Shown: positions 14,082-34,669, counted from the stretch's first letter. The stretch: DNA of 64,000 nt from a bacterium (GCA_033764035.1 JANRJJ010000026.1:46840-110839), one strand, 5' to 3'. A program made the numbers and translations. Notes: generated by a model from the sequence alone, not told the origin.

Positions 14082-14092
14082 GGGTTTACGCG

Positions 14093-15796: not shown

Positions 15797-15800
15797 GCCC

Positions 15801-17459: not shown

Positions 17460-19249
17460 TCGGTGAAGTGCGCATCCCTTTGCTGCAACTGAATTACCCG
17501 TATGGCGACCCGCTGATCCGCCAGCGCGCCCAGGCGCTGCTGTACATGATCGCGATTGTCGCGCTTGGATGGGCAATTCTGCTGGTCATCACGCTTTCCC
17601 AGGTCGCGGACGAGATTTACGAGCCGGGGTTCATCATCCCGACGATTGTCGCGCCGATCAGCTATGTGTTCATCTATCGCCTGGTGCAAACCGGGCAGGC
17701 GCAGTTGGCATCGCTGCTGTTCGTCAGCCTGATGCTGATCGGCACTGCGCCCGTCGCCATCATCAGCCCGGAATTGTTCCTCAGCTTCCTGCTGATCATT
17801 CCGCTGGTGGCGGCGGGGGCGCTGTTCAACCGCCTGGGCTTTCTGGTGGTGCTGGCGGTCATCCTGGTGGCGCTGCTCACACGGGCGTTCGTGCTGCTCA
17901 ACGTCGATACCGTCATCCGCTATATCCCATCCGTCAACGGCGCGGGCGAAATTGCCCTGGCCGGGCTGGTGATCGTGATCGCGGCGGTGTTCCTGTTCGG
18001 CTTCACGGGCGGCACCGAACGCATCGCGCAGAGTTCGCTCAACGACCTGCACCACTGGGAGCTTTTCGCCCGCCTGAACCTGCGCGGCGAAACCGACCCG
18101 GATCGCATCGCACAGCGCTTGATCGACTTGCTTCAGGCCGAACTCGATTACAACCTGGTGCAGATTTATTTTGCCGACGAAACCGGCAGCATCACCCGGC
18201 GGGTGCGCAGCGGCGGCGCGGTGGATCGCCAGTTCAGGGTGCGCATCGACGAACTGCCGACGATTGGCGAAGTCGCCCGCGAAAAGCGGCTGCGCGTGTT
18301 CCGGCGCGATTCCTCCACGCTGCGCGAATACCCGCTGGCTCCATCCCGCATCGGCATCGCCCTGCCCATCCTGTACAACGGAATCGTGCTGGGCATCCTG
18401 GATGTGCAAACGCGCCGCGCCGATGCGCCGTCGGAAAACCAGATCAACGCGCTGAGCGCGCTGGCCGATGCGCTGGCCGAACTGCTGATCAATGCGCGCC
18501 GCCAGACCGAACTGCAAAAGACCGTAGCCGATCAGGAAGGCGTGATCGCCACCTTCCGCACCCGGCTGACCGAACTGCAACAGCGCGGCGCACAGCTCGT
18601 CGGCGGGAACTGGATGCGCTACCTGGAAGGGCGCGGCGGCCAGGCGTTCGGCTTCGATGTCGCGGACCACACCCCGGGTGGCACCGACGGCGACTTTGGC
18701 AGAGGCGACCGCACCCCGGAAGGCAAAGCCGTCCCCCGCCCCGCCCATGACCTGCCGCCCGCCATTCGTGAGGTGCTTCAGCGCGGCGACCTGTTCATCG
18801 AACCGGGCGCGGACGGGACATCGGTCGTGCATGTGCCGATTCTGCTGCGCGAAGAAGTGTTGGGCGGCATGATGTTCACGCTGCCGCCGGAACGCCCGCT
18901 GACCGACCGCCAGATTGAAGCGCTGCGGGCGATCTCTAACCGTCTGGGGCAGTCGCTCGAAAACAACCGTCTGTTTGAACAATCCCAGGCCCAGGCGCAG
19001 CGCGAACGTAAAGCCAGCGAGATCAGCGCCCGCCTGCTGAGCGCGACGACGATTGAGAACCTGCTCGATTTGGCGGTGATGAATTTCAACGACGCGCTCG
19101 GCGCAATTTCGACACGGGTCTATATTCAGCCGGATTTCGTCCAGCCGGATACCTTCCGCCCAGACGCACCCGACCCCGCGCACCCACCCACCCGCAGCGG
19201 GAACGGGAACGGAAATGGTGCTGCATCGCACGGCGCGAACGGCGCATGA
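17456..19249 (+). CDS. Membrane protein with TM bundle, divergent GAF and reduced GAF, no output domain
   Basis: ATGA overlap with previous gene; TM helices; IALPILYNGIVLGILDVQT; VPILLREEVLG..LENNRL. Confidence 0.8.
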   Translation: MIGEVRIPLLQLNYPYGDPLIRQRAQALLYMIAIVALGWAILLVITLSQVADEIYEPGFIIPTIVAPISYVFIYRLVQTGQAQLASLLFVSLMLIGTAPVAIISPELFLSFLLIIPLVAAGALFNRLGFLVVLAVILVALLTRAFVLLNVDTVIRYIPSVNGAGEIALAGLVIVIAAVFLFGFTGGTERIAQSSLNDLHHWELFARLNLRGETDPDRIAQRLIDLLQAELDYNLVQIYFADETGSITRRVRSGGAVDRQFRVRIDELPTIGEVAREKRLRVFRRDSSTLREYPLAPSRIGIALPILYNGIVLGILDVQTRRADAPSENQINALSALADALAELLINARRQTELQKTVADQEGVIATFRTRLTELQQRGAQLVGGNWMRYLEGRGGQAFGFDVADHTPGGTDGDFGRGDRTPEGKAVPRPAHDLPPAIREVLQRGDLFIEPGADGTSVVHVPILLREEVLGGMMFTLPPERPLTDRQIEALRAISNRLGQSLENNRLFEQSQAQAQRERKASEISARLLSATTIENLLDLAVMNFNDALGAISTRVYIQPDFVQPDTFRPDAPDPAHPPTRSGNGNGNGAASHGANGA

Positions 19250-19265
19250 ACGGAGTTAGCCAACC

Positions 19266-21557
19266 ATGTTGACATCGTCCCGCCGCTTAAGCGCGCTCAA
19301 CCCCCTGTCGTACCCCATCTGGCTGAAGCTGACGCTGGGGTTCGCACTGGTGGTGGTGCTGGTGATCCTGCCCGCGCTGTTCCTGCTCAGTTCGGGTGTG
19401 GAGGCCATCGCCTTACAGAATGCGCGCTCGTTCCTTTCCGAAAATGGCACCCGCCAACTGAGCAGCGTTGCCAGTTCGTTTGAACGGGCGCGCGCCAACC
19501 TGGATCGGTTCGTGGAAACGCCCTTCAACAACCGCCAGTTGGTCGGTGCGCTGTTGGGCAATGCCGCCGAACGGTCGGATATTGGGCTGGTCGATGTGAA
19601 CCCGGCGGATACCGCCGCCCTGATGGAATCGATCCTGCTCAACCCGGCGACATCGCTGTACGACAACGTGCGCCTGCTCGACCGCGATGGGCAGGTCGTC
19701 GCGCTGGCCGGGCTGGCCCCGTTGGGCGTATCGCTGATCGATCAATCGCAGACGGCGGCCTACCAGGTCGCGGCGGGCGATACCACCGGCGAAACCAGCC
19801 TGCTGGTGATTTCGCAGCGCGGGTTTCCGGTGCTGGAATTCGTCCACAAAATTTACTGGCGCGATAATTCGGTGATCGGTTACATGGTCACCCAGTTGAG
19901 CAATGCCCGCGCCGTGTATGCGAATCTGCGGTTTCGCTTTCCCAACGATGAACCCTTTGAAGCCTATGCTTTCCTGATCGACGAACAGGCGGTACAGCTC
20001 ACCCCGGTGGAAAACCGCGAACAGGCCGCCAACAGCCTCGCATCGGAAGGGGTGCGGCGGGCGCTGGATGGTCAGAGCGGGTTGGAGGTCTACAGCCCGG
20101 CGGGCAGCGAAAACAACCCGAACGCAGAGGTGATCGGCTATTTCGCACCCGTGCCGGGGACGACGCTGGCGCTGGTGTCGGAACTTTCGCTCGACAGCGT
20201 GCGCCAGGACGTGCTGTCATTTCTGCCGCTGCGCGGCGCGGTGGTGGCCATTGGCTGGGTCGGCATGGTCATCGTGCTGGGCATCCTGTTCAATCAACTG
20301 TTCGCGCCGCCGCTGGCCCGGCTGCGCCGCGCCGCCCTGGGGATGATTGGCGGGGATTATGAAACGCCGCTGCCGGATGTGCGGCGCGGCGATGAATTCG
20401 GGGAAGCGGCCAGCGCGTTCGTGCAGATGCGTTCGCGCATGAAAACGATGGTCGATGAACTGGAATCGCGGGTTGCGCTGCGCACCCGCGATATTGAAGC
20501 CACCCAGGAAATCAGCCGCTACGCCGCCACCCAGCGCGATGCAAACGCGCTGATGCGCGACGTGGTGAACCTGATCGTGCAGCGCTTTCCGGCGATTTAC
20601 CACGCCCAGATTTTCCTGATCGACGCGGACAGGCAGTACGCCGTCGTGCGCGCCAGCACGGGCGAAGTGGGGCGGCAGCTTCTGGAACGTGGGCATCGCC
20701 TGGGCGTGGGCAGCGTGAGCGTGATCGGCCAGGTGACGGATCAGGGTCGCTATATCCTGGCGAAAGATGCCGCCGTCAGCCAGGTACACCGCCGTAACGA
20801 ATTTCTGCCCGATACGCGGTCGGAACTGGCGATTCCGCTGCGCGTGGGCGAAACGATCATCGGGGCGCTGGACGTGCAGTCGAAGCAGTCCGACGCATTC
20901 CCCGACGACATGATCCGCGTGCTGGAAACGATGGCCGACAACATCGCCATCGCCATCGAAAACGCCCGCCTGTATGAAGAATCGGTGCGGCGTGTGCGCG
21001 AAATTGAGGATACCAACCGCGAAGCCACCCGGCGCGCCTGGCAGGATTATCTGCGTGACCAGCGCGTGTTAAGTTTGAGCCGTGAAGCGGGCGTGCCGCT
21101 CACCCAGGACGATACGATCTCCGAACTGCGCCGCCGGGCGCTGGCGACGGGCGAAATTGCCGTCGGTGACCAGACAGGACGGAATACCTACCCGGTCGCG
21201 GTGCCAATTCAACTGCGCGGGCAGACGCTTGGCGCGGTAGAATGGGAGCTGCCCGCGGGCGATTTCAGCCGCGAAAAGCTCGAACTCGCCCGCGAACTGG
21301 CCAACCGTCTCGCGCTCAGCCTGGATAACACCCGGCTGTTCCAGGAAAGCCGCCGTGCGACCGAACGCGAACGGCTGGTCAACACGATTGCGGCGCGGCT
21401 GACGGCGCAGACCAGTATCGATCAGATTTTGCAGACGGCTGTCCGCGAAGTGGGTCAGGCGCTGCGTGCGCCGCAGGTGACGATCCGGCTGAAGGGCAGC
21501 GAGTCGGCGGCAGGGCTGAACCAACCTGCATCGCCATTACCGAATGATCACGAGTAG
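19266..21557 (+). CDS. Cache-like/HAMP/GAF membrane sensor without kinase domain
   Basis: TM, extracytoplasmic domain, TM, HAMP (PLARLRRAA..RGDEFGEAA), GAF with ASTGE, reduced GAF. Confidence 0.82.
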   Translation: MLTSSRRLSALNPLSYPIWLKLTLGFALVVVLVILPALFLLSSGVEAIALQNARSFLSENGTRQLSSVASSFERARANLDRFVETPFNNRQLVGALLGNAAERSDIGLVDVNPADTAALMESILLNPATSLYDNVRLLDRDGQVVALAGLAPLGVSLIDQSQTAAYQVAAGDTTGETSLLVISQRGFPVLEFVHKIYWRDNSVIGYMVTQLSNARAVYANLRFRFPNDEPFEAYAFLIDEQAVQLTPVENREQAANSLASEGVRRALDGQSGLEVYSPAGSENNPNAEVIGYFAPVPGTTLALVSELSLDSVRQDVLSFLPLRGAVVAIGWVGMVIVLGILFNQLFAPPLARLRRAALGMIGGDYETPLPDVRRGDEFGEAASAFVQMRSRMKTMVDELESRVALRTRDIEATQEISRYAATQRDANALMRDVVNLIVQRFPAIYHAQIFLIDADRQYAVVRASTGEVGRQLLERGHRLGVGSVSVIGQVTDQGRYILAKDAAVSQVHRRNEFLPDTRSELAIPLRVGETIIGALDVQSKQSDAFPDDMIRVLETMADNIAIAIENARLYEESVRRVREIEDTNREATRRAWQDYLRDQRVLSLSREAGVPLTQDDTISELRRRALATGEIAVGDQTGRNTYPVAVPIQLRGQTLGAVEWELPAGDFSREKLELARELANRLALSLDNTRLFQESRRATERERLVNTIAARLTAQTSIDQILQTAVREVGQALRAPQVTIRLKGSESAAGLNQPASPLPNDHE

Positions 21558-21575: not shown

Positions 21576-24500
21576 ATGTCGATGAGCAGCTCACCCGAAA
21601 CCCGGCGCAGAACGGCATCGGTTCGCACCCGCATCATGCGCCCGATTGCGTTCGTCGTCCTGGGCATCTTCCTGATCCTGGGGTTGTCCGGGCTGTTCGG
21701 CATTCAGGCTTCATCCCGTGCGATTATTCGCGGCGCGCATCTTACCGATATTACCCTGCTGCGCGAACAACTGAACGATGCGCTGAGCGATGTCACCACC
21801 GATGTCCGCGCCGCCGCCAATGACCCGGTGACGCGCCGTTTCGCCACGACATCGCTGGCGAGCGTGGTCGGTGAAGATGTCAACCTGGCCCAGGCAGCGC
21901 TGGCCGAACGCCTGGAAGCGCTGGTCAACGATCATCTGGATACTTACCTGGCCGTGCGCTATGTCACCTTCACCGGGGCAATCTGGACGGAAGTCACCAA
22001 CGCCGGCGGGATCACCCGTGCGGCTACGCGCATCCGCCCGAACGAACTGAACGACGACCCCACGCTCGTCACCGCGTTGGGCGGCACCAGCGGCGACGTG
22101 ATTGCCAGCGATGTCGATTTCCGCGTGAACAACGATGCGCCCGCTTCGACCCGGTTGATCCCGTTCGTGCGCTTCGCATCGCCCGTGTTCACCGAAACCA
22201 GCACGACCGACATTGCCGGGGTGATCCAGATCGATTTCGCCATCCCCCAGGTGATCAGCCAGATCAACGCGACGGGCGCGGCGGTCATCGCCGCCCAGGA
22301 AGGCCGCCGCCTGCTGGTGGTCGATGATGAAGGCCGCATCCTGGCCGACAGCGGCCAGCCGAACACGAACTTTCTGCGCAACATCGCCAATCGCGTCCCG
22401 GTGGTGTTCGACCAGGCGTACCCGGTGCTGGCTGCGGCGGTCGAAAACATCGAAACGGTCGATCTGGCCGAATCCGACGATCTGATCTACACGGTCGATC
22501 AGCTCGATTTTTCCAGCGGCGCACAGCGCTTCTGGCGGCTGATCCTGGTCGATGAACGCGGGACTGCCGCCGCCTACCAGGTTTACCTGGGGTTGGGCGT
22601 GCTGGTGCTGTTCATCGGTTTCGGCGGGGTGGTGGCCGTGCTGATTGACAGCGTGGTGTCGCGCAATCTGCGCCCGCTGCGCGATGTGGCCGACCTGACG
22701 CAGACGATAGGCCGCAGCTATACCGACAGCCGTGAGCCGCTGGAGACGGGCGACGAGTTCGGCCAGTTGATCGAAGCGTTCGAATCGATGGCTTCCGAAC
22801 AATTCCGGCTGCGCGACGAACTCGAAGCGCAGCGCGGACGCTTCACCCGCAACCTGGATATTGCCGCACGCATCGGGCGCGAAACGCTGAGCCTGCGCGA
22901 AGGCGATACGCTGATCAACCGGGCGATCAACCTGATCTGCGACGAGTTCGGCTACTACCACGCTCAGTTGTTCCGCATCGACGATGCCGGGCTGAACGCG
23001 GTGCTGGTGGTCAGCCGGGGCGTGATTGGCCAGGAACTGCTGGCGCGGGGCTACCGCGTACCGATCAACGATGCGTCGGTGATCGGCACGGTCGCCGCGC
23101 ACGGCCAGCCGATCCTGATTCCCGATGCCACGCTGAAGGCGGGCGACCAGGCCGATGAAGCCGAAGGGCTGCTGGCCGAAACGCGGTCGCAGATGGCCGT
23201 CCCGCTGCTGAGCGGCGGTGAAGTCATCGGCGTGCTGGATGTGCAAAGCCAGAACGTGAACGACTTCCGCGAAGAAGATTTGCGTATGGTGCAAATCCTG
23301 GCGGATCAGATTGCGGTGGCGCTGGAAAATGCCCGCCTGCTGAAAGAGACGAGCGAACGCCTGACCGAGATCGATTCGCTCAACCGCCAGCTTTCGAGCG
23401 GGCAGCAGCAGGCGGAGACTCTGAATACACAAATCGACAGTGTGTACCGTTACGACCTGCTCACGGTGAAGCGCGGCGGCGATACCGGGCCGCTCTCGTC
23501 CGACCAGCCGAGCATGACCATCCCGATCAGCATTCGTGGTGAGGTGATCGGTGCGCTGGAGGCCGCCGCGCCCCAGGGAATCGATTTCACTGCGGGCGAT
23601 GAGGCGATCATGCGCGCCGTCGCGGACCGCGTGGGTATTGCGCTGGAAAATGCACGCCTGTTTGAATTGCAGCAGTCCAGCCTTCAGGAAACTTCCCGGC
23701 TGTACGAACTGGTACGGGCGCTGAATGAAGCCAACAGCCTGGAAGATGTGCTGCATTCCATCGTGATGTCGGTCATCCCGGATGCGGTCAGCGTGCAGAT
23801 CGGCGTGTTCGACGAATATGCCGACTCGACTGGCCCACTGTGGATGGAAATTCTGGCCGAATGGACGAGCCAGCAGGAAACGCAGCGCGATGTGCGCATG
23901 ATGGGCATTCAATTACATGTGCCGGATCATCCGCTGCTGGCAGCCATGCAGCCCAACCAGATCACGCTGGTGAACGATACCGAACGCGATACGCGCCTGG
24001 ACGACGTGTTACGGGCGATCATCGCCACGACGGGCGGACGGTCGATGGTGCTGATCCCGGTCACGGTGCGCGGCACCTGGCGCGGGGTGATGATGGCGCA
24101 CTTCCCAGAACCCCGCACGTTCGGCCTGGAAGAAGGCCGCGTGTACAACGCACTGATCGACCAGGCGGGGGTCGTGATCGACAACCGTATGCTGCTGCGC
24201 AGCAACGAGATCACCCTCAAGCAGGTGGAGCGGTTGTACTCCGCCAGCCGTGCCATCAATATGGCGCAGACCGCGCAAGACCTGGTGCGGGCGGCAGTGG
24301 GCGGCAACGACAACCTGTACCGCGATTATGAACTGGTGATGTTTGAAGGCGACATCGATGCGAGCGGCTGGCCGACGCGCATTCGGCTGGCGGCGTATTC
24401 CGAAGGCACCGACGTTCAGGCCAGCAGCGATGTCTACGATGTGGTGATCGCCACCGATTCGCCGCTGCGCTACCGCGAACCGCAGATCATCACGCCCCAG

Positions 24501-27500
24501 GGCGAAATCGATGACGACGATACGCCGCACGCCAACAACCTGACCCAATATGTGCGGCAGCGCGGCAACCGCTTCGCCGCCGTGTTCCCGCTGTTCAGCG
24601 CCAACCAGCCGATTGCGCTGTTCCTGGTGACGAGCAAAGAAGCACGTGAAGAAATTTCATCGGAAGACTTTGACGTGTACCGCGCCCTGACCGGGCAGAT
24701 GAGTACGGTACTGCAAAACCGCCGCCTGCTCGACCAAACCGCCGCGTCGCTCGATGAAACGCGCCGCCTGTACGCCGCCAGCCGCGCCATTGCCACCGCG
24801 CCGGATAAAGAGACGGTGTACGAAATCGCGGCCCGTTATTTGAACATGACCAACGCCGCGCAAACCAGGCTTTCGGTGCTGCTTACCCCATCGCAAAGCG
24901 CAGATGCGCCGTTCGTCGAATATACACACCTGTTCACACGCGGCACGGCGTACACGTCCGATATTGATGTGGGGACGCGCATCCCGTCATCGCTCGTGCC
25001 GTTCGGGGAGCTGACGCGGCAGGCGCGTACCCAGGCGTTCAACCGCTCCAGTGAACTGGCCGTGCAGCCTGCCCTTCACGCGCTGATGCAGCGCAGCGGC
25101 AGCCTGAGCGCGGCGATCATCTCGATCCAGTCGCGTCAGCGCTGGTTCGGCGTGATCTTCTGCGAAAGCGATAAACCTGCCGCCTTCGACGATGCGTATC
25201 TGCGTTTTGCTCAGGCCGTTGGTGACCAGGTGGCGATTGCGGTCGAATCGCTCAGCCTGTTCAGCGAAGCCCAGCAGCAGGCGCAGCGTGCGCTCGCGCT
25301 GGCGGAAGCGGGACAGCTTGCCAACCAGATCGGCGCGCAGTTCGAGAAAAGCATCGGTGAAGTATTCCGCCGCGTGGCCGAACCCGCCGCCTATGACCGC
25401 TGGATACTGATGCTCCATTCGCCTGGTCAGCACGGGCTGCGCCGCGTGGCCGAATACAACGTCGATACCGGGCTGATCGACAGCGATGCGCCCGGTTCGC
25501 TCATGCCGCTCAACGTGGTGGGCGTGCCGCTGCTCGATGCCTTCCGCCTGGGACGGACGCTGCTGGTCAACGACCCGTCCAGCTACCCGAACTTCCCGCG
25601 CAACTATGCCGGGCTGGACGATTTTGGCGATTACATCGGCAAGCATGTCGCCGTCCCGGTGTTCAGCGGCAGCCAGACCATCGGCGCGCTGGCGGTTGGG
25701 CGGCGGCTGGACGCGCTCGACCTGGACGAGAGTGACGAACAGCTTGCGCGCACGCTGGCCGCCCAGGTCGGCATCGCGGTCGAAAACCGCCGCCTGTTCG
25801 TGGAAGCGGAAAGCGAACGTTCCAATCTGCGCTCGATTCTGGAAACGCTGCCAGCGGGCGTGCTGGTGCTGGATGCCCGCACCTTCACCCCGGTGCAGTT
25901 CAATCAGCAGGCGGTCGAACTCTTGGGCAGGTCGATCAGCATCAGCAGGCCGTTCGATATTGGCGAATACAACGTATACCGCGCCAGCAGCCGCCAGCCG
26001 TTCGCCAACGACGAACTGCCAATCTTTGAATCGGCGCGCAGCGGCAGGCTGGCCAGCAGCGACGATGTGATGGTCATGCTGGAAGATGGCAGCGCCAATT
26101 ACCTGCTCGTCAACGCCGCGCCCATCGTCGATGCCGGGGGTTCCACGACCGCCATCGCCGCCGCTTTCCAGGATATTTCGCGGCTGCGCGGTTTGGAAAC
26201 CACGCTGCAAGAGACGCTGAATGAAACGATGGCGCTGTACGATACCACCCGCGCCCTGGCTGCCGGCACGACGCTGGAAGCGCTGCTCGACCAGATCATC
26301 AACCGGCTGGGGACGCTGCAACCCGCGCCCGATAATGCCTTCGTGCTGCTGCTGGAACCGGAAGGGCTGCGCGTCGCCCGCGCCCTGACCACCCCCACCG
26401 ATGGCTACAGCCTGCCGGACGAACTGCTCACCCCGGACGTGACCATGTTCATCCCAGATGTGGCGGACGATCTTTCGCTCGATGATGCGGTGCGGCTGGC
26501 GCTGCTCAAACAGAACATCCGCGCCGTCGCCAGCCTGCCCATGCTCACTCGTTCCCGCGCCCAGGCTCCGCTGGGGTGGCTGGTGGTGGTGTACCAGCAA
26601 GCACAGGAATCGCTGATCGAACGGGCGGGCTTTCTGGGCAACCTGGCCGATAACGCCGCTGTCGCCATCGACAACCGCAACCTGTTCCGCGATACCCAGG
26701 CCGCTTTGCAGGAGGCCAACAACCTGTACCGCGCCACCACCACCATCAGCCGTGTGAGCGGGACGGAACAACTGAGCGAAGCGCTGCGCAGCACGATTGA
26801 ATCGCTGAAGCCGGATGTGATGGCCGCGTACCTGTTCGTGGACGAACAGGGATCGCCATTCGTGACCGAACTGTTCAACGAAAACCAGGATGGCGCGCCG
26901 CTCGATTTCGCCATGCTGATCGAACGGCACGGCCTGGGGCAGGTCAATGCGCTGTTCATCAACGATCTGCGGGCGATCACCGACCCCAACCCGTTGGAAA
27001 TGGCCTTGCAGTCCGTCGGCACGATCCGCGCCCTGGGGCTGATCCAGATGCGTTCCAAGACCCTCCCCGCTGGCTGCCTGATCGTCGGGTATCACCGCCC
27101 GCGTACCTTCGATGAAAGCATTGCCCGGTATCTCAGCGCGATCAGCGACAGCGCATCGGTCATCATCGACAACATTCTGCTGTTCGGGCAAATTCAGAAC
27201 ACGCTGGAAGAAACCAGCACGCTCTACCAGGCCAGCCGCGCCCTTTCGGATGCGGCCAACCCGGTCGATATTCTCGATGTGGTGACGGCGCATCTGCACA
27301 GCCACACCCGCACGATCAGCACGGCATTCGTGGCGATGCTGGTCACGCGCAGTTGGGAAAGCCCGAACGCGATGGTGCGCGTAGCGGCAAGCTGGCGCAA
27401 CCCCGCCGAAGCCGATGAAATCGTTGACCTGGCCGGGATCACGCTTACGGAAGAACAGTTCCCCGCGTGGAAACTGCTGGCCGTGAACGATGTGTACACG

Positions 27501-30458
27501 ATTGACGATGTGCTGTCGAATACCCAACTCGACATCATGGAACAGGCGGGGATTGAAAGCATCGGCGTGCGGTCGGTAGCGTTCCTGCCGCTGCGCGTGA
27601 GCGGTCAATCGATTGGCACGCTCGTGATCGGGTCGCGCCAGCCGTACACGTATACGGATCGTGACCTGCGCATCTACCGTTCGTTCTCTGAACAGGCATC
27701 GCTGCGCCTGGAAGCGACGCGCCTGCTGGAACAGACACAGCGCCGCGCCCGTCAGCTTGCCACCTCTGCCGAAGTGAGCAGCTACGCCAGTTCGCTGCTC
27801 GACCTGCAATTCCTGCTGCCGCGCATCGTAGACCTGATCAAAGACCAGTTCCGCTACGACCATGTGCAGATTTTCATGATGGACGATGCCGATGAATTTG
27901 CCGAACTGCGCGCCAGCACGGGCGAACCGGGGCGGCAGCTTCTGGGAATCAAGCACCGCTTGGCGAAAGGGTCGTCGTCGGTCATCGGCCAGGTGACGCT
28001 GACCGGGCAGCCGACCATCGCCGCCGATACCGCCGATGCCAGCGTGATCCACCGTCCGAACCCGTACCTGCCGAACACCCGCTCGGAAATGGCGATCCCG
28101 CTCATGCTCAAAGGCCGCATCGTCGGCGCGCTGGACGTGCAGTCGAACCAGCCGAACGCCTTCGATGAGGACGATATTTCGGTGCTGCGCACGCTGGCGG
28201 CGCAGATTTCCGTCGCCATCGACAATGCCGAATTGTACGAAGACGCGCAGCGCCGTGCGTCGGAAACCTCCTTCCTGTTCAACGTGACCAGCCGCGCCGC
28301 CGCCGCTGAATCGCTCGATGAAGCGCTGGCGAACGTGGCGGATGAAATGCTGAGCGAACTCGATGCGTCCGCGACGGTGATCTACCTGCCGCGCCAGTAC
28401 ATCGAAGGGGACGACGAAACGTCGGTGTTCACGCAGCTTGACCCGGTGGCGCTGGCGGGGAACGAGCCGTCCAATGGCGGCCAACCGCTCAGCGAGATCA
28501 ACAGCGTGCGCCTGGACGACGGCTCCAGCCTGCTGGCACAGGCGGGCGCAGCGCGGCGCTCGTTCATCCTGGGCGACCTGGAGCAGGATCGGCGCTACCT
28601 GCCCATCAACGCCGAATCGCGGTCGGCCATCATCGTACCGCTGGTGACGGGCGCGCAGTTGGTCGGGCTGGTGGTGGTCGAAAGCCTGCTGCTGGAAGCG
28701 TATGACGACAACGTGCTGCGCACGATGTTCACGCTGGCCGGGTCGCTCAGCGCCATCGTCCAGAACCAGCAGCTTCTGGAACAGGTGCAGCGCCAGAACG
28801 ACGCGCTGCGCGAACTTGACCGCCTGAAAAGCGATTTCCTGGCGAACATGAGCCACGAACTGCGTACCCCGCTCAATTCGATCATCGGGTTCAGCCGCGT
28901 GATCCTGAAGGGTATCGACGGGCCGCTGACCGAAATGCAGGAACAAGACCTGAGTACGATCTACAATTCCGGGCTGCACCTGCTTAACCTGATCAACGAC
29001 ATCCTTGACCAGGCCAAGATCGCGGCGGGCAAAATGGATTTGCAGTTCGATTACTTTGAAATGAAAACCGTGATCGACGGCGTGCGCTCCATCGGCATTG
29101 GGCTGGTGAAGGAAAAGCCCATCGATATTCAGGTGCATCTGGCTCCTGGCCTGCCCAAAGCGTTTGGCGATGAGTTCCGCACCCGCCAGGTGTTGATCAA
29201 CCTGGTTTCGAACGCGACCAAGTTCACGCGGCAGGGGACGGTCACCATCGACGTGTACACCGTGAACGAACCCGAAACCGGGCGGCTGATGATCCGCGTG
29301 GACGTGACCGATACGGGCATCGGGATTGCCGATAAAGACCTGCCGCTGCTGTTCGAAGCCTTCCGCCAGGTGGATTCGTCGCTCACGCGCACCCAGGGCG
29401 GGACGGGGCTGGGGCTGCCGATTGCAAAATCGCTCGTTGAAATGCAGGGCGGGGAAATGCTCGTGCAGTCTCAGGTGAACGTCGGTTCGACGTTCAGCAT
29501 CCTGGTGCCAACCGAACCCGTCGTCGATGCGCCGGATAAACCGGGCGATATGGCCAGAAAAAGCACCGGGCGGCTGGCCAAGACTGCGCCACTTTCGCCA
29601 ACGGGCGCGCTTCAGGCGATTGTCGATGAAACCCAGGAACGCCCGAACGTGGGCGGCGATGATACCGCCTTCCCGCCCACACCGACCCGCCCGCCGATGA
29701 TGGAAAAGCGCCAGATTCTGCTGATCGAAGACAATCCCGATATGGTCGATCAGTTCCGGCGGGCGCTTCAGCGCGAAGGCTTCGATATTTTCGCCGCGTC
29801 CATCCCGCTGGAAGCCGAAGCGATGGCCAGCGGCCTGCACCCCACCATCATCATCATGGACGTGAACTTTGCCGATGGCCAGGGCTGGCAAATGCTGAAG
29901 CGCATGAAAAGCCGCGATGATACCCGCGATATTCCCGTCGTGGTCGTCACCATCAACCCGGATAAAGAGGATATTCTTGCGGAAGGCGCGTTCCTGTACG
30001 TGGCGCGTCCGTTCGTGCCGGAACAAATCGTCGAAGCGGTGCGGCTGGCCGAAGAAGAAGCGCGCATCGACAAAATCCTGATCATCGATGACCAGCCCGA
30101 AAGCGTGCGCGTGCTGGAAGACCTGCTGAACGAACAGGGGCGCTACAAGGTGTTCGCCGCCCCCAGCGCGATGGACGGGATTTCGATGGTCGCCCGCCGC
30201 CGCCCCAACCTGGTCATCCTTGACCTGCGGATGCCGGAAATGGACGGTTTCCAGGTGATCAGCGAATTGCGCAGCAACCCGGAAACCGCTACGATCCCGA
30301 TCATCGTGGTGACGGGTGATGTGCTGAACCCGGCGGAACGCGACCAACTGACCAACTTATCGGTGCTGTACAAGGCCGACATCAACGCCGGGCAGCGCCG
30401 CCAGTTCATGGACGGGGTGAAGCAGCACCTGACCCGCACCAACGGCGAACATTCGTGA
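21576..30458 (+). CDS. Giant hybrid sensor histidine kinase (Cache-like, HAMP, about 11 GAF, PAS, HisKA, HATPase, 2 REC), 2960 aa
   Basis: H-box FLANMSHELRTPLNSIIG; N-box NLVSNATKFT; G1 DTGIGI; G2 GGTGLGL; REC IIIMDVN and VILDLRMP; PAS LETLPAGVLVLD. Confidence 0.92.
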   Translation: MSMSSSPETRRRTASVRTRIMRPIAFVVLGIFLILGLSGLFGIQASSRAIIRGAHLTDITLLREQLNDALSDVTTDVRAAANDPVTRRFATTSLASVVGEDVNLAQAALAERLEALVNDHLDTYLAVRYVTFTGAIWTEVTNAGGITRAATRIRPNELNDDPTLVTALGGTSGDVIASDVDFRVNNDAPASTRLIPFVRFASPVFTETSTTDIAGVIQIDFAIPQVISQINATGAAVIAAQEGRRLLVVDDEGRILADSGQPNTNFLRNIANRVPVVFDQAYPVLAAAVENIETVDLAESDDLIYTVDQLDFSSGAQRFWRLILVDERGTAAAYQVYLGLGVLVLFIGFGGVVAVLIDSVVSRNLRPLRDVADLTQTIGRSYTDSREPLETGDEFGQLIEAFESMASEQFRLRDELEAQRGRFTRNLDIAARIGRETLSLREGDTLINRAINLICDEFGYYHAQLFRIDDAGLNAVLVVSRGVIGQELLARGYRVPINDASVIGTVAAHGQPILIPDATLKAGDQADEAEGLLAETRSQMAVPLLSGGEVIGVLDVQSQNVNDFREEDLRMVQILADQIAVALENARLLKETSERLTEIDSLNRQLSSGQQQAETLNTQIDSVYRYDLLTVKRGGDTGPLSSDQPSMTIPISIRGEVIGALEAAAPQGIDFTAGDEAIMRAVADRVGIALENARLFELQQSSLQETSRLYELVRALNEANSLEDVLHSIVMSVIPDAVSVQIGVFDEYADSTGPLWMEILAEWTSQQETQRDVRMMGIQLHVPDHPLLAAMQPNQITLVNDTERDTRLDDVLRAIIATTGGRSMVLIPVTVRGTWRGVMMAHFPEPRTFGLEEGRVYNALIDQAGVVIDNRMLLRSNEITLKQVERLYSASRAINMAQTAQDLVRAAVGGNDNLYRDYELVMFEGDIDASGWPTRIRLAAYSEGTDVQASSDVYDVVIATDSPLRYREPQIITPQGEIDDDDTPHANNLTQYVRQRGNRFAAVFPLFSANQPIALFLVTSKEAREEISSEDFDVYRALTGQMSTVLQNRRLLDQTAASLDETRRLYAASRAIATAPDKETVYEIAARYLNMTNAAQTRLSVLLTPSQSADAPFVEYTHLFTRGTAYTSDIDVGTRIPSSLVPFGELTRQARTQAFNRSSELAVQPALHALMQRSGSLSAAIISIQSRQRWFGVIFCESDKPAAFDDAYLRFAQAVGDQVAIAVESLSLFSEAQQQAQRALALAEAGQLANQIGAQFEKSIGEVFRRVAEPAAYDRWILMLHSPGQHGLRRVAEYNVDTGLIDSDAPGSLMPLNVVGVPLLDAFRLGRTLLVNDPSSYPNFPRNYAGLDDFGDYIGKHVAVPVFSGSQTIGALAVGRRLDALDLDESDEQLARTLAAQVGIAVENRRLFVEAESERSNLRSILETLPAGVLVLDARTFTPVQFNQQAVELLGRSISISRPFDIGEYNVYRASSRQPFANDELPIFESARSGRLASSDDVMVMLEDGSANYLLVNAAPIVDAGGSTTAIAAAFQDISRLRGLETTLQETLNETMALYDTTRALAAGTTLEALLDQIINRLGTLQPAPDNAFVLLLEPEGLRVARALTTPTDGYSLPDELLTPDVTMFIPDVADDLSLDDAVRLALLKQNIRAVASLPMLTRSRAQAPLGWLVVVYQQAQESLIERAGFLGNLADNAAVAIDNRNLFRDTQAALQEANNLYRATTTISRVSGTEQLSEALRSTIESLKPDVMAAYLFVDEQGSPFVTELFNENQDGAPLDFAMLIERHGLGQVNALFINDLRAITDPNPLEMALQSVGTIRALGLIQMRSKTLPAGCLIVGYHRPRTFDESIARYLSAISDSASVIIDNILLFGQIQNTLEETSTLYQASRALSDAANPVDILDVVTAHLHSHTRTISTAFVAMLVTRSWESPNAMVRVAASWRNPAEADEIVDLAGITLTEEQFPAWKLLAVNDVYTIDDVLSNTQLDIMEQAGIESIGVRSVAFLPLRVSGQSIGTLVIGSRQPYTYTDRDLRIYRSFSEQASLRLEATRLLEQTQRRARQLATSAEVSSYASSLLDLQFLLPRIVDLIKDQFRYDHVQIFMMDDADEFAELRASTGEPGRQLLGIKHRLAKGSSSVIGQVTLTGQPTIAADTADASVIHRPNPYLPNTRSEMAIPLMLKGRIVGALDVQSNQPNAFDEDDISVLRTLAAQISVAIDNAELYEDAQRRASETSFLFNVTSRAAAAESLDEALANVADEMLSELDASATVIYLPRQYIEGDDETSVFTQLDPVALAGNEPSNGGQPLSEINSVRLDDGSSLLAQAGAARRSFILGDLEQDRRYLPINAESRSAIIVPLVTGAQLVGLVVVESLLLEAYDDNVLRTMFTLAGSLSAIVQNQQLLEQVQRQNDALRELDRLKSDFLANMSHELRTPLNSIIGFSRVILKGIDGPLTEMQEQDLSTIYNSGLHLLNLINDILDQAKIAAGKMDLQFDYFEMKTVIDGVRSIGIGLVKEKPIDIQVHLAPGLPKAFGDEFRTRQVLINLVSNATKFTRQGTVTIDVYTVNEPETGRLMIRVDVTDTGIGIADKDLPLLFEAFRQVDSSLTRTQGGTGLGLPIAKSLVEMQGGEMLVQSQVNVGSTFSILVPTEPVVDAPDKPGDMARKSTGRLAKTAPLSPTGALQAIVDETQERPNVGGDDTAFPPTPTRPPMMEKRQILLIEDNPDMVDQFRRALQREGFDIFAASIPLEAEAMASGLHPTIIIMDVNFADGQGWQMLKRMKSRDDTRDIPVVVVTINPDKEDILAEGAFLYVARPFVPEQIVEAVRLAEEEARIDKILIIDDQPESVRVLEDLLNEQGRYKVFAAPSAMDGISMVARRRPNLVILDLRMPEMDGFQVISELRSNPETATIPIIVVTGDVLNPAERDQLTNLSVLYKADINAGQRRQFMDGVKQHLTRTNGEHS

Positions 30459-32203
30459 CATCTATCCCAGGGAGGGACTTACGCCCTCCCTGGATCAGTT
30501 TTCAAGGTTGCAACGTGGTCATCGTGCATCAGCCGCAAGGCACTACCAAACATATCGAACTGGAATGTATCAACTGCCATACCCGCGTCCCGCTCGATAA
30601 GCATGTGAGCGGGTGTCCATCGTGCGGCGAAAACATTCTGGAGGCACGCTACGATCTGTCGCAGATCGACGTGATCGAATGGCTGGCGCTTCTGCGCCAG
30701 CGCCAGCCGGGGTTGTGGCGCTACCATGAAGTGCTGCCGCTGTACGATGCGCGCAATATCGTCAGCCTGGGCGAAGGCGGCACCCCGCTGATCAAATCGC
30801 GGGCGCTGGCTGCCAGCCTGGGGCTGAAACACCTGTATTTCAAGGACGAACGCCAGGGGCCGACCGCCAGCTTCAAGGATCGACAGGCGGCGGTCGCCAT
30901 TTCCGCGCTGAAAGAGATCGGCGTGGATGAGGTCGTGGTCGCCAGCACGGGCAACGTCGCCATCGCCTACGCTGCCTATGGCGCACGGGCGGGGATCAAG
31001 GTGTGGGCGTTCTTCCCCAGCCTGACCCCCGGCGACAAGATGCGCGAAGCCGCCCTGTACGGCGCGGAGGTGATCAAGATCACCGGGACGTATGACCAGA
31101 CCAAAGAGATCGCCGCCCGCTTCGCCAAGCGCAAGGGCATCTTCCTGGATCGCGGGATCAAGTCGGTGGCGGCCATCGAAGCCATGAAAACGATGGCCTA
31201 TGAAATTGGCGAACAGCTCGGCTACGAGCTGGACGGCGGGCGGACATGGCGCGCCCCGGACTGGTTCATCCAGGGGGTGAGCGGCGGCATGGGGCCGATT
31301 GGCGTGGGCAAGGGCTTCCGCGAAATGCTCGATTTTCGGCTGATCGACCAGATGCCCGCGCTCGGCGTGATTCAGTCATCGGGGTGCGCGCCGATGGTCG
31401 AAGCCTTTCAGCGCGGCCAGCGCATCGCCACCCCGGTCGAAAACCCGGAGACGATCATCGCTACGCTGGCGACGGGCAACCCAGGCCGCGCCTATGAACT
31501 GCTGTACGATTATGTGCAGGCTTACGGCGGCCATTTCATCAGCGCCAGCGATGAAGAAGCATTCCACGCCACGCGGCTGGTGGCGCGCAACGAAGGTATT
31601 TCGGTCGAACCTGCGACCGCCGTCACATTCGCGGGCGTGTTCAAGCTGGTGCAGCGCGGGATCATCAAGGCCGATGATGTCGTCGTCGTGAACGTTTCCG
31701 GCCACACCATGCCCGTCGAAACCACCATCCTGGGCGACCAGTGGCAGCAGTCGCTCGATCTGTCGCAGCGCGTGAGCGCCCCGGTCATGCCCCAGGAAGG
31801 GTTGTACGCCGCACTCGAACAGATCGAATCGCAGGTGCGGCGCGTGGTGATCATCGAAGATAACCAGGATGCCGCCCGGCTGATCCGCCGGATGCTGCAA
31901 GCCAAAGGTACGTTCGATGTGCAGATCGTCCACGATGGCAAGGAAGGGCTGGAACTGGTGCGCACCCAGCGCCCGGATATGGTGATCACCGACCTGATGA
32001 TGCCCGACGTGGACGGTTTCCAGGTGATCGAAACCCTGAAGGCCGACCCGGAACTGGCGCACATCCCGATTGTGGTGATCACGGCCAAAGAACTGACCGC
32101 CAAAGAACGGGCGCGGCTGACCGATCAGGTCGAAATGCTGCTGGCAAAGGGATCGTCGATTGACGAAAGCGTGATCGAAACGCTCGTGACCAAACTGGAA
32201 TAG
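30455..32203 (+). CDS. Threonine-synthase-family PLP enzyme with N-terminal Zn ribbon and C-terminal receiver domain
   Basis: CINC..CPSC; LGEGGTPL; PLP lysine in PTASFKDR; ASTGNVA; EPATA; REC VVIIEDN..ITDLMMP..VITA..LAK. True start may be a GTG near 30515-30524. Confidence 0.88.
   Translation: MTSIPGRDLRPPWISFQGCNVVIVHQPQGTTKHIELECINCHTRVPLDKHVSGCPSCGENILEARYDLSQIDVIEWLALLRQRQPGLWRYHEVLPLYDARNIVSLGEGGTPLIKSRALAASLGLKHLYFKDERQGPTASFKDRQAAVAISALKEIGVDEVVVASTGNVAIAYAAYGARAGIKVWAFFPSLTPGDKMREAALYGAEVIKITGTYDQTKEIAARFAKRKGIFLDRGIKSVAAIEAMKTMAYEIGEQLGYELDGGRTWRAPDWFIQGVSGGMGPIGVGKGFREMLDFRLIDQMPALGVIQSSGCAPMVEAFQRGQRIATPVENPETIIATLATGNPGRAYELLYDYVQAYGGHFISASDEEAFHATRLVARNEGISVEPATAVTFAGVFKLVQRGIIKADDVVVVNVSGHTMPVETTILGDQWQQSLDLSQRVSAPVMPQEGLYAALEQIESQVRRVVIIEDNQDAARLIRRMLQAKGTFDVQIVHDGKEGLELVRTQRPDMVITDLMMPDVDGFQVIETLKADPELAHIPIVVITAKELTAKERARLTDQVEMLLAKGSSIDESVIETLVTKLE
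30467..30493. other. GC-rich hairpin just after the giant kinase stop
   Basis: 10-bp stem CCAGGGAGGG/CCCTCCCTGG, loop ACTTACG, no U-tract. Confidence 0.6.
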
Positions 32204-32211
32204 CGGACAAC

Positions 32212-33456
32212 GTGACCAACAATCGCACCATTCTGTACATTGAAGATGACGCGGCGAGCCGTTCACTGGTTGAACGCACGTTGAAATTTCACGGGTATCA
32301 TGTGCTGGTGGCCGACTGCGGGCTGGCCGGGATCGACCTGGCGCGCAAAGAAACGCCCGACCTGATCCTGACCGACATCAACCTGCCCGACCTGACCGGG
32401 CGCGAGATCACCACGCGCTTGCGCAGCGACCCGCAGTTCGAACACACGCCGATTGTCGCGCTCACCGCGCAATCGTTGGGCGAACAGCGCGAACTGGCGC
32501 TGGCCGCTGGCCTGACCGGGTACCTGACCAAACCGCTGGATATTGAAGCGCTGCCGACCCAGGTCGATTTTTTCCTGAAGGGCGGCAGCGAAAAGCTCGA
32601 CCAGCAAAAGCTGAGCGAAGCCCAGACGCGCTACACCCGTGAAGTGGCCGAACGGCTGGAAACGCGCATCCGCGAACTGGAGGCGCTCAACCAGCAGTTG
32701 CGCCGCCTTGACCGCATGAAGGACACCTTCATCCAGATCACGGCGCACGAACTGCGCACCCCACTCACGCTCGTGTTCGGCTACAGCCGCCTGCTGGAAG
32801 ACAACCCGATGCTGAAGCCGCATTTTATGGGCGATGCCAATCTGCGCCTGCTCATGGACGGCATGAACCAGTCCATCGGGCGGATGCAGAGCATCATCGG
32901 GGAAATCGTCACCATGAGCCGCATCATGACCAACCAGATCGATCTGGTGGTGGGACCCACCGACCTGGGCAACATCGCCGCCAAAGCGATCAAGAGCTAT
33001 GAAACGGCGCTGAAGGAACGGAGCCTGAAAGTCGCCTTCGACCGGGCGACCTTCCCCAACGGGATGCGCGCCGACTGGGAACTGATCGAACTGGCGCTGA
33101 AAAACCTGATCAGCAACGCCATCAAGTACACGCCCGACGGCGGGCTGATCGAGATCACCAGCAAGACCGAAGGCGAACAGGTGCGCGTCTCCGTGCGCGA
33201 TCACGGGATCGGCATTTCCAAAGACGACCAGCGCGGCATCTTCGAGCGCTTTCATACCACGGGCGATACGCAGCTTCATTCGACCAGCAAGACCGCGTTT
33301 CGCGGCGGCGGGATTGGCCTGGGACTGGCGATCACCAAAGGGATCGTTGAAGCGCACGGCGGGCGCATCTGGGTGGAAAGCGATGGCTACGACCCGGCGG
33401 CGCTGCCAGGGAGCGCGTTCATTTTTACAATTCCTTTGATCGCTGAACGATCATGA
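32212..33456 (+). CDS. Hybrid histidine kinase, REC-HisKA-HATPase
   Basis: ILYIEDD..LILTDINLP..LTKP; AHELRTPL; NLISNAIKYT; DHGIGI; GGGIGLGL. Confidence 0.9.
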   Translation: MTNNRTILYIEDDAASRSLVERTLKFHGYHVLVADCGLAGIDLARKETPDLILTDINLPDLTGREITTRLRSDPQFEHTPIVALTAQSLGEQRELALAAGLTGYLTKPLDIEALPTQVDFFLKGGSEKLDQQKLSEAQTRYTREVAERLETRIRELEALNQQLRRLDRMKDTFIQITAHELRTPLTLVFGYSRLLEDNPMLKPHFMGDANLRLLMDGMNQSIGRMQSIIGEIVTMSRIMTNQIDLVVGPTDLGNIAAKAIKSYETALKERSLKVAFDRATFPNGMRADWELIELALKNLISNAIKYTPDGGLIEITSKTEGEQVRVSVRDHGIGISKDDQRGIFERFHTTGDTQLHSTSKTAFRGGGIGLGLAITKGIVEAHGGRIWVESDGYDPAALPGSAFIFTIPLIAERS

Positions 33457-33508: not shown

Positions 33509-34669
33509 GTGCATATCAAAATCGTAACACCCTCTCCCCGCGCACAAGGCATCATGGCGGCGTTTCTTACCCCGCTGTTCCTGGGCGTTGCGCCGATCTT
33601 CGGCAAGGCGGCCATCAACGCGGGCGCTGATCCGTTCACGGTGGCGGCCTTTCGCACGGTCGTCGCGGTGGCGCTGCTGTGGGGGCTGTACCTGCTGTGC
33701 TTTCGCAAATATCTGTATATCTATCCGGCGGGGCTGCTCGGCTGCGTGGTCGTCGGGACGATCAACGGGATCGGGTCGCTGTTCTTCTATGGCGGCCTGG
33801 GGCTGCTCGATGCGTCGCTTTCGCAGCTTCTCAACGGCATGTACCTCATCTTCGCTATCCTGCTGGCGCACCTGGGCGGCGAACGCATCGACCGCCGCAC
33901 CGCGCTGCGCGTTGGGCTGGCAATGTCGGCGCTGATCCTGATCACCGGGTTCGGCAGTGAACCGATCAACTGGCTGGGGGTCGGGCTGATGCTGGCGAAC
34001 GCGCTCATGTTCGCCGGGACGGTGATCCTGAGCCAGTACGTGCTGCGCGAAATGCCGTCACCGACCGCCGCGCTGTACATCCTGACCACGATGGCCGTGA
34101 TCGTGATCATGGTGTGGGCGGGTGTAGGCCGCCCGGTCACCGGGGAGGTGCTGACCTCCGCGCTGCCCGCGATTGCCATTCTGGGCGTGACGACGGCGCT
34201 TTCCCGGCTGACAATGTTTGCCAGCGTGCAGGTGTTCGGCAGTTTGCGCACGGCCATCATCGCGGTGGCCGAAATTGGTGTCGCGCTTTCGCTGGCGTAC
34301 CTGGTGCTGGGGGATCGGCTTGCGCCGGTGCAGGTGATCGGCGTGGCGCTGCTGGGCATTTCGCTGCTGCTCATCCGCGCCAAAGACCTGACCCCGCGCC
34401 TGTTCAACCCCAGCAGCCTGCTCATCCGCGATGTGGCGAGCATCCAGTTTCAGCGCATCGCGTTTCACCGCGCCTTCGGCAAAGCCGAACAGGACAACGA
34501 ATTCGGCGTGATGAGCCAGATCACCACGATGGAAATGCAGATGATCCAGCGGATGATGGGCGCGAAGGAAAGCCCGGTCGATCCGTTCCCGCTATCCAAA
34601 GAGCAGGCGCTCGCCCCTGGGGATTTTGAGCGCCTGCTTCAGCCCAAACCCGCCCCGCCAGGGGATTAG
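33509..34669 (+). CDS. EamA/DMT family transporter with roughly 90-aa soluble C-terminal extension
   Basis: About 10 TM helices in two repeats; hydrophilic tail from RAKDLTPRLF. Confidence 0.85.
   Translation: MHIKIVTPSPRAQGIMAAFLTPLFLGVAPIFGKAAINAGADPFTVAAFRTVVAVALLWGLYLLCFRKYLYIYPAGLLGCVVVGTINGIGSLFFYGGLGLLDASLSQLLNGMYLIFAILLAHLGGERIDRRTALRVGLAMSALILITGFGSEPINWLGVGLMLANALMFAGTVILSQYVLREMPSPTAALYILTTMAVIVIMVWAGVGRPVTGEVLTSALPAIAILGVTTALSRLTMFASVQVFGSLRTAIIAVAEIGVALSLAYLVLGDRLAPVQVIGVALLGISLLLIRAKDLTPRLFNPSSLLIRDVASIQFQRIAFHRAFGKAEQDNEFGVMSQITTMEMQMIQRMMGAKESPVDPFPLSKEQALAPGDFERLLQPKPAPPGD

Follow-up and report, generated by a model that had tools for sequence, protein, structure and literature searches.

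The window analyzed here is a 64,000-nucleotide stretch of bacterial DNA (GCA_033764035.1 JANRJJ010000026.1:46840-110839). On its + strand, the stop-free reading frame at 30455-32203 encodes a zinc ribbon, a pyridoxal phosphate (PLP) domain of the threonine synthase (ThrC) type and a response-regulator receiver domain (REC) as a single polypeptide, as judged by Pfam analysis of the translation. A preliminary description of the DNA had placed a PLP lysine motif, a zinc ribbon and an intact receiver on one chain; each of these motifs was located, and the Pfam assignments agree. We consider it reasonably likely that the product is a response regulator whose output is a ThrC-fold PLP enzyme, and not a threonine synthase.

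Domain organization of the fused protein

Two residue numberings are used: P0001 is the 582-residue reading that starts at GTG 30455, and P0005 is the 562-residue database copy. The start codon is probably GTG 30515, 60 nt further on, because P0005 and all homologs have their N-termini 10-17 residues ahead of the IELEC motif of the zinc ribbon. A G+C-rich hairpin at 30467-30493, described below, separates the end of the preceding kinase gene from this later start. The gene is thus placed at 30515-32203 (+), and the start at GTG 30455 adopted in the preliminary description is probably too early.

In P0001 numbering, the Cys4 zinc ribbon comprises CINC (residues 38-41) and CPSC (54-57) and lies at 30566-30625; its four cysteines are invariant in alignments A1-A4, and the region gives a weak Pfam match to DUF7129. 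The fold-type II PLP domain corresponds to Pfam PALP (residues 103-416, E 3e-72; 30761-31702) and is also supported by alignments to PDB chains and by invariant columns. Motif coordinates within it are 30875-30877 for the codon of the Schiff-base lysine K141 in SFKDR (139-143), 30944-30958 for STGNV, 31280-31297 for the glycine loop SGGMGP and 31382-31399 for GCAPMV. The rebuilt substrate loop discussed below, DRGIKSVAAIEAMKT, occupies residues 232-246 (31148-31192). The end of the PLP domain and a conserved linker form the motif SGHTxPVExxILGDxW (31697-31744). The receiver, Pfam Response_reg, follows at residues 464-569 (E 6e-20; 31844-32161), with the acidic pair E468/D469, the phospho-acceptor D513 in ITDLMMP (codon 31991-31993), T543 and K565.

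An AlphaFold model of the protein has a mean predicted local distance difference test score (pLDDT) of 78.5. Foldseek searches with this model gave threonine synthases as top matches (target-normalized template modeling score 0.83-0.86, 29-34% identity), and phmmer comparisons with 2zsj, 2d1f, 6cgq and 1uim gave E-values of 1e-39 to 1e-46. The PALP match, the top rank of ThrC chains in both sequence and fold, and K141 within SFKDR place the domain among ThrC-type fold-type II enzymes.

The substrate site differs from that of threonine synthases

Conservation was assessed in 36 aligned relatives down to 52% identity, among which about 100 columns are invariant. The SFKDR Lys, the STGN Asn, the glycine loop and SGHT are invariant, so the cofactor site is kept. 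The fused enzyme shares its fold, the SFKDR and STGN motifs and the length of the catalytic domain with canonical ThrCs (2ZSJ of A. aeolicus, 2D1F of M. tuberculosis, 6CGQ/6NMX of B. subtilis and 1UIM/1V7C of T. thermophilus), and an N-terminal zinc ribbon is common to it and the canonical ThrC of the same genome.

In contrast, the substrate-phosphate site is rebuilt. In HMMER alignments to the solved ThrCs 2zsj, 2d1f and 6cgq, DRGIKSVAAIEAMKT stands opposite NSVNP-YRIEGQKT and replaces the canonical loop N-S-x-N-P-x-R-x-E-G-Q-K-T; alignment to the genome's own ThrC, P0125, places the loop likewise. We take T88, N154, S155, R160 and N188 (T. thermophilus numbering) to be the ligands of the O-phosphohomoserine phosphate, and confirm them here only as residues conserved in solved ThrCs; the list reportedly goes back to the T. 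thermophilus ThrC structure of Omi et al. in 2003. The canonical residues are kept at these five positions in four solved ThrCs and in P0125. In P0005 they are changed to V148 (from Thr), R213 (Asn), G214 (Ser), A220 (Arg) and G257 (Asn), and within the family, where 213 is R or K, the replacements vary little or not at all. By segment, STGNT becomes STGNV, N-S-x-N-P-x-R becomes R-G-x-K-S-x-A, and GNAGN, the PLP-phosphate loop of ThrC, becomes SGGMG (SGGMGP in full). D212, G214, E222 and M224 of the rebuilt loop are invariant, and the fused enzyme has further invariant motifs, DERQ, DRQA and GCAPMV, that set it apart from canonical ThrC. The preliminary description had pointed to an altered NSxNPxR segment; the alteration proved to extend to all five variable phosphate-site residues, with the replacements conserved in the family.

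The best-matching NCBIfam model is NF006050 (PRK08197), with 289.8 bits against a cut-off of 303. The threonine synthase model TIGR00260 scores 172 bits, marginally over its cut-off of 167.1, and the database name "threonine synthase" arises because this score barely passes. Two other assignments were tried and rejected. Cysteate synthase (TIGR03844) reached 130 bits against a cut-off of 324.9, and the Ser/Thr ammonia-lyase/dehydratase models (IlvA/TdcB) did not exceed 76 bits (cut-offs 331-496), with a weaker fold match than to ThrC. The PLP domain probably represents a ThrC-derived enzyme family, marked by its rebuilt pocket, with a changed chemistry.

The phosphorylation residues of the receiver are conserved

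In the 36 relatives, the acidic pair E448/D449, D493 and K545 (P0005) are invariant and T523 is conserved in at least 90%. The β4-α4 stretch TAKELTxxERxRL is strongly conserved. In the linker, H397, T398, V401, E402 and L406 are invariant and G407 and W410 nearly so; its ILGDxW part is restricted to receiver-fused members.

The best PDB match of the receiver is DivK (1m5t). Of 49 genomic receiver hits, the top one (100 bits) is the first receiver of a paralogous enzyme described below. The second receiver (REC2) of the kinase encoded upstream ranks second (38% identity, 83 bits), while the downstream REC-kinase has a receiver that scores 68 bits, and REC1 of the upstream kinase reaches 44 bits. 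The resemblance to REC2 pointed out in the preliminary description is therefore real yet modest.

A separate canonical threonine synthase is encoded elsewhere in the genome

The genome (4.73 Mb, 95% complete) holds four ThrC-like genes: a canonical one on contig C20, a third type on C3, the window gene, and a paralog with two receivers on C22. The canonical thrC (C20:5465-6763) scores 260 bits against TIGR00260, carries the motif LNSINPFRLEGQKS and is divergently adjoined by thrB (C20:4388-5299, 233 bits). The preliminary description had left it open whether the genome has a canonical thrC of its own; the C20 pair settles that the fused gene is not the sole thrC. The window gene has no linkage to thrB. 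A canonical copy (258-260 bits) and a fused gene (173 bits) occur together in this genome and in a relative of the same genus, and a ThrC match over the cut-off was found in 39 of 41 sampled genomes of the class. Judged on its substrate site, the thrB-thrC pair and the tree described below, the fused protein is probably not the threonine synthase of the cell.

The paralog at C22:126996-129140 (-) (locus L018, 7997-10141 (-)) is 48% identical to the window protein, carries FDRGAKAIPGKESMKT and ends in two C-terminal receivers. It belongs to a second cassette in the genome, in which a 1627-residue PAS/GAF kinase is followed by the enzyme-REC-REC protein, a single REC, a GNAT protein and a GerE-type regulator. 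The GNAT linkage to this second paralog type is weak, being found in 3 of 5 and 4 of 67 loci.

Distribution and phylogeny

The PALP+REC architecture recurs in more than 120 database proteins (74-87% identity), and those that carry a name are called "threonine synthase". By tblastn, a receiver lies directly 3' of the PALP domain in 124 non-redundant Chloroflexota loci, and about 40 of 301 genomes of the phylum contain a full-length fused copy, many of them two. A pattern scan of one representative genome per species found relatives encoded in at least 584 stretches; the 80 record titles inspected among the matches listed are nearly all from Anaerolineae, Aggregatilineales, Phototrophicaceae, Thermoflexia or unclassified Chloroflexota. 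Further scans added Caldilineae and the isolate genomes of cultured Herpetosiphon (H. aurantiacus DSM 785, H. giganteus DSM 589 and H. geysericola DSM 7119), and metagenome-assembled genomes (MAGs) labeled Caldilinea aerophila and Anaerolinea thermophila also carry the family. The fusion is therefore common in Chloroflexota and not peculiar to one genome. A chance or assembly fusion is ruled out by an architecture kept in hundreds of species.

A maximum-likelihood tree of 98 catalytic domains was computed with Shimodaira-Hasegawa-like approximate likelihood ratio (SH-aLRT) support. All receiver-fused proteins fall in one 23-row clade (SH-aLRT 97), which lies within a 33-row clade (SH-aLRT 97); both are far from the canonical ThrCs. 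Most members of the 33-row clade have the rebuilt loop D-x-G-x-[KR]-S...E-x-[MK]-K-T together with SGGxGP and GCxPMV.

Five receiver-less proteins are nested in the fused clade as sister to the subgroup of the window (SH-aLRT 99). Their nearest relatives in genome records are from filamentous cyanobacteria, namely Microcoleaceae (L113, L114/L117) and Pseudanabaena MAGs (L115/L141); these copies are 60-67% identical, have the same pocket residues and stop just past PVEE. The simplest interpretation of the nesting is a transfer into cyanobacteria followed by loss of the receiver. The catalytic domain would then have a function of its own without the receiver, since receiver-less cyanobacterial orthologs persist. 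In Microcoleaceae the gene order is DUF2301, PALP, an SDF transporter and an amino-acid-binding protein with a peptidoglycan-binding domain, a context that suggests amino-acid transport; the Pseudanabaena context disagrees, the copy there having housekeeping genes as neighbors. A published cyanobacterial ThrC of the ThrC lineage (PMC12172450) is a different protein. A search for the gene context of receiver-less sister clades (P0139, P0142 and others) returned only one such hit, on a short contig of a Limisphaerales MAG, the rest being receiver-fused Anaerolineae.

The preliminary description had allowed that the receiver might be absent from homologs. It is present in every Chloroflexota clade member examined (Anaerolineae, Caldilineae, Thermoflexia and Herpetosiphon) and is missing only in the cyanobacterial offshoot and in distant relatives.

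Gene neighborhood

Immediately upstream, a giant hybrid histidine kinase of 2960 residues is encoded at 21576-30458 (+). Its translation and Pfam matches show an N-terminal membrane/extracytoplasmic region, HAMP, GAF, a weak PAS, HisKA, HATPase_c, REC1 and REC2; Pfam finds GAF in six stretches, and an earlier count gave about 11 GAF-like units. Starting 8 nt past the stop codon of the enzyme gene is a gene for a soluble 414-residue REC-HisKA-HATPase_c kinase (32212-33456, +), followed by one for a 386-residue membrane transporter of the EamA/DMT family (33509-34669, +), both assigned by Pfam. The transporter matched no subfamily in NCBIfam. No Hpt or DNA-binding domain was found by Pfam in the giant kinase, the enzyme or the REC-kinase, which leaves the PLP enzyme as the sole non-kinase output. 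Further upstream, at 13912-21557 (+), the window encodes several membrane HAMP-GAF proteins that have no output domain (e.g., the 763-residue product of 19266-21557). HAMP-GAF genes of this sort are also found ahead of the kinase gene in L019 and L020, so these output-less proteins may be part of the same signaling locus.

Neighborhoods were compared in three sets: 71 non-redundant fused loci with both flanks (set 1), 44 Anaerolineales/Caldilineae loci at 50-55% identity (set 2) and 67 Herpetosiphon-type loci (set 3), where the search covered a shorter flank of about 2.3 kb past the gene. Directly upstream, a kinase with a core orthologous to that of the giant kinase is encoded in 54/71 loci of set 1 and 43/44 of set 2 (97/115 together); counting either side, 67/71 loci of set 1 have a kinase gene. 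The REC-kinase is found downstream in 45/71 (directly) and 14/44 loci, and EamA within 6 kb downstream in 54/71 and 34/44. The same four-gene cassette recurs in two distant MAGs. In set 3, a separate single receiver lies 3' of the gene in 22/67 loci. The H. aurantiacus DSM 785 locus (L252, CP000875.1 ~1402537-1411308) encodes a GNAT protein, a 1877-residue dCache-HAMP-GAF-PAS kinase, a 545-residue ThrC-like-REC protein (~1409294-1410931) and an overlapping REC. The constant partner of the family is a sensor kinase, and the REC-kinase and EamA belong with the ortholog group of the window.

Proposed function and alternatives

The architecture, the intact PLP and phospho-acceptor residues, the rebuilt pocket, the separate thrB-thrC pair, the distinct clade and the conserved neighborhood are direct observations, and they favor a response regulator with a ThrC-fold enzyme as output. 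From these we infer phosphotransfer from the neighboring kinases, a direction of control, a reaction with its substrate and a role of the transporter, as follows. The 2960-residue GAF-rich hybrid kinase and the downstream REC-kinase would control whether Asp513 of the receiver is phosphorylated. The phosphorylated receiver would then alter the activity of the PLP domain in a ThrC-fold dimer, the likely route being dimerization or docking through the conserved α4 region and the ILGDxW linker. The substrate would be an amino acid other than O-phosphohomoserine, with β- or γ-elimination or replacement as the most likely reaction. In the ortholog group of the window, EamA, encoded two genes 3' of the enzyme, would carry the substrate in or the product out.

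Several observations weigh against this view. The AlphaFold model has no confident receiver-enzyme interface and is disordered in the linker (pLDDT <50, residues 397-430). The C-terminal placement of the receiver is unusual among response regulators, and a receiver so placed may act as a sink or relay for phosphate instead of switching the enzyme. The rebuilt loop retains two conserved basic residues, R/K213 and K/R216, so that a phosphorylated or otherwise anionic substrate, even O-phosphohomoserine, may be compatible with it. The TIGR00260 score, marginally over its cut-off, is a further point. EamA and the REC-kinase have no counterpart in roughly a quarter to one third of the orthologous loci, and in the Herpetosiphon-type group neither was found within the ~2.3-kb flank (REC-kinase 0/67, EamA 0/67); hence the transporter link is not a property of the whole family. 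Finally, the locus was matched in no RNA run searched, and one sediment-metagenome DNA run held 5% of its words.

Some of these observations would also suit a PLP domain that acts as a ligand sensor, a role we regard as unlikely. Formation of an external aldimine would tune gain or loss of the receiver phosphate, and the protein would be a connector or phosphate sink that feeds metabolic state to the phosphorelay. MocR/GabR regulators offer a parallel, in that their aminotransferase-like domain binds an amino acid as external aldimine. The receiver is C-terminal, as in hybrid kinases, and the cassette has four receivers and two kinases with no Hpt or DNA-binding output. The likeness of the receiver to REC2, its best match in the kinases, would be expected if both compete for one phosphodonor, and a sensor would conserve PLP-binding residues as well. 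Nevertheless, the receiver-less cyanobacterial orthologs, with the same pocket, work without a signaling partner. In addition, conservation of the active site is very tight, as is typical of catalysis, and the transporter gene that follows in most loci of the group fits metabolite turnover.

Enzymatic output is retained, with a different substrate assignment, if the protein is a true threonine synthase isozyme under two-component control, possibly coupled to threonine export by EamA. The EamA family is generally known to include threonine/homoserine exporters, E. coli RhtA among them; the nearest solved structures are all threonine synthases, the TIGR00260 score is marginally over its cut-off, and basic residues are left in the rebuilt loop. 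This assignment is nevertheless improbable: the equivalents of T88, N154, S155, R160 and N188 are all replaced in a protein whose canonical counterparts keep them, the score is under the cut-off of PRK08197, the best-matching model, a canonical thrC stands beside thrB elsewhere in the genome, and the clade is well apart from true ThrCs. A pseudo-receiver, a structural or dimerization module that is no longer phosphorylated and leaves the enzyme constitutive, is very improbable: the receiver Lys is followed by Gly instead of the common Pro, Leu occupies the usual aromatic switch position, and cyanobacteria lost the receiver and kept the enzyme, but the acidic pair, Asp and Lys are invariant, Thr is nearly so, and a histidine kinase lies directly upstream in most loci.

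Within the response-regulator interpretation, a more specific and rather doubtful scenario is that the ThrC-like domain makes a non-proteinogenic, amino-acid-derived signal on command of the kinase, that EamA exports it, and that the GAF domains of the kinase and of five upstream output-less GAF proteins sense it. If true, filamentous Chloroflexota would have a self-contained signaling circuit, acting from cell to cell or across the filament, with synthesis of its own signal as the direct output of a two-component system.

Comparison with known systems

CheB methylesterase, the GGDEF proteins PleD and WspR, the HD-GYP protein RpfG and RsbU-type PP2C phosphatases likewise carry a phosphorylatable receiver on an enzyme, with the gene beside that of a kinase. 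By analogy with these enzymatic-output regulators, phosphorylation-dependent activation through relief of inhibition or dimerization is a likely shared logic. In the fused protein, the receiver is C-terminal and not N-terminal, and the output is a PLP-dependent amino-acid enzyme with primary-metabolite-like chemistry instead of one acting on a signaling protein or a nucleotide second messenger. The preliminary description had held that PLP enzymes are not among the usual receiver outputs; in agreement, a literature search for a ThrC or other PLP enzyme as the output of a receiver found no description.

Plant threonine synthase (A. thaliana 1E5X/2C2B), a Foldseek match, provides a precedent for allosteric switching of a ThrC-fold dimer. 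It is activated by S-adenosylmethionine at the dimer interface, with involvement of an N-terminal extension. The plant enzyme is a true ThrC under small-ligand control, whereas the fused enzyme has a phospho-receiver instead. Cysteate synthase (TIGR03844; CapA2 of Alistipes finegoldii, 9K3C) is a precedent for neofunctionalization, being ThrC-derived, with a zinc-ribbon N-terminus and a changed reaction; it has no receiver, and by score the fused protein is not a member. The autoinducer synthases CqsA and LqsA are PLP enzymes encoded beside sensor kinases (Vibrio cqsA-cqsS, Legionella lqsA-lqsR-lqsS), and this clustering with two-component genes offers an analogy for a signal-making enzyme. 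They differ in being fold-type I enzymes with known products and no receiver fusion, and for the fused enzyme a signaling product would be speculative.

A regulated enzyme of this type would extend the few enzymatic outputs of response regulators by a PLP-dependent amino-acid enzyme, and would be a case of two-component control of metabolism at the post-translational level, without a transcription step. The public-database name "threonine synthase" for these fused proteins is probably wrong. The misannotation would be systematic, as the name is given to hundreds of proteins from Chloroflexota that have lost the substrate-phosphate site and occur alongside a true thrC. The question is directly testable in cultured carriers (the Herpetosiphon isolates, and the species represented by the labeled Caldilinea aerophila and Anaerolinea thermophila MAGs), and H. 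aurantiacus DSM 785, cultured and fully sequenced, is a practical experimental system.

Additional observations

A terminator-like scan identified an intergenic hairpin at 30467-30493 (+), CCAGGGAGGG-ACTTACG-CCCTCCCTGG followed by ATCAGTTTTC, between the stop codon of the kinase gene (30456-30458) and GTG 30515. It has a perfect 10-bp G+C-rich stem (-22.1 kcal/mol by RNAfold) and a weak T tract on its 3' side. In the relatives L020, L035, L045, L059 and L047, the corresponding intergenic position likewise has a strong hairpin, with an unrelated sequence. Such an element may uncouple expression of the kinase and the enzyme, through partial termination or through RNA stability.

The third zinc-ribbon ThrC-like gene of the genome (C3:234333-235580, +; locus L017) has RNTGINPYTTEGKKS without the canonical Arg and scores 306 bits against PRK08197, just over the cut-off. 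An additional PALP gene lies 1.5 kb 3' of it (C3:237090-237941, +). In the tree, the zinc-ribbon ThrC-like proteins P0168, P0185, P0203, P0207 and P0256 (611-620 residues), which carry a C-terminal non-receiver extension of about 230 residues, form a separate clade (SH-aLRT 100).

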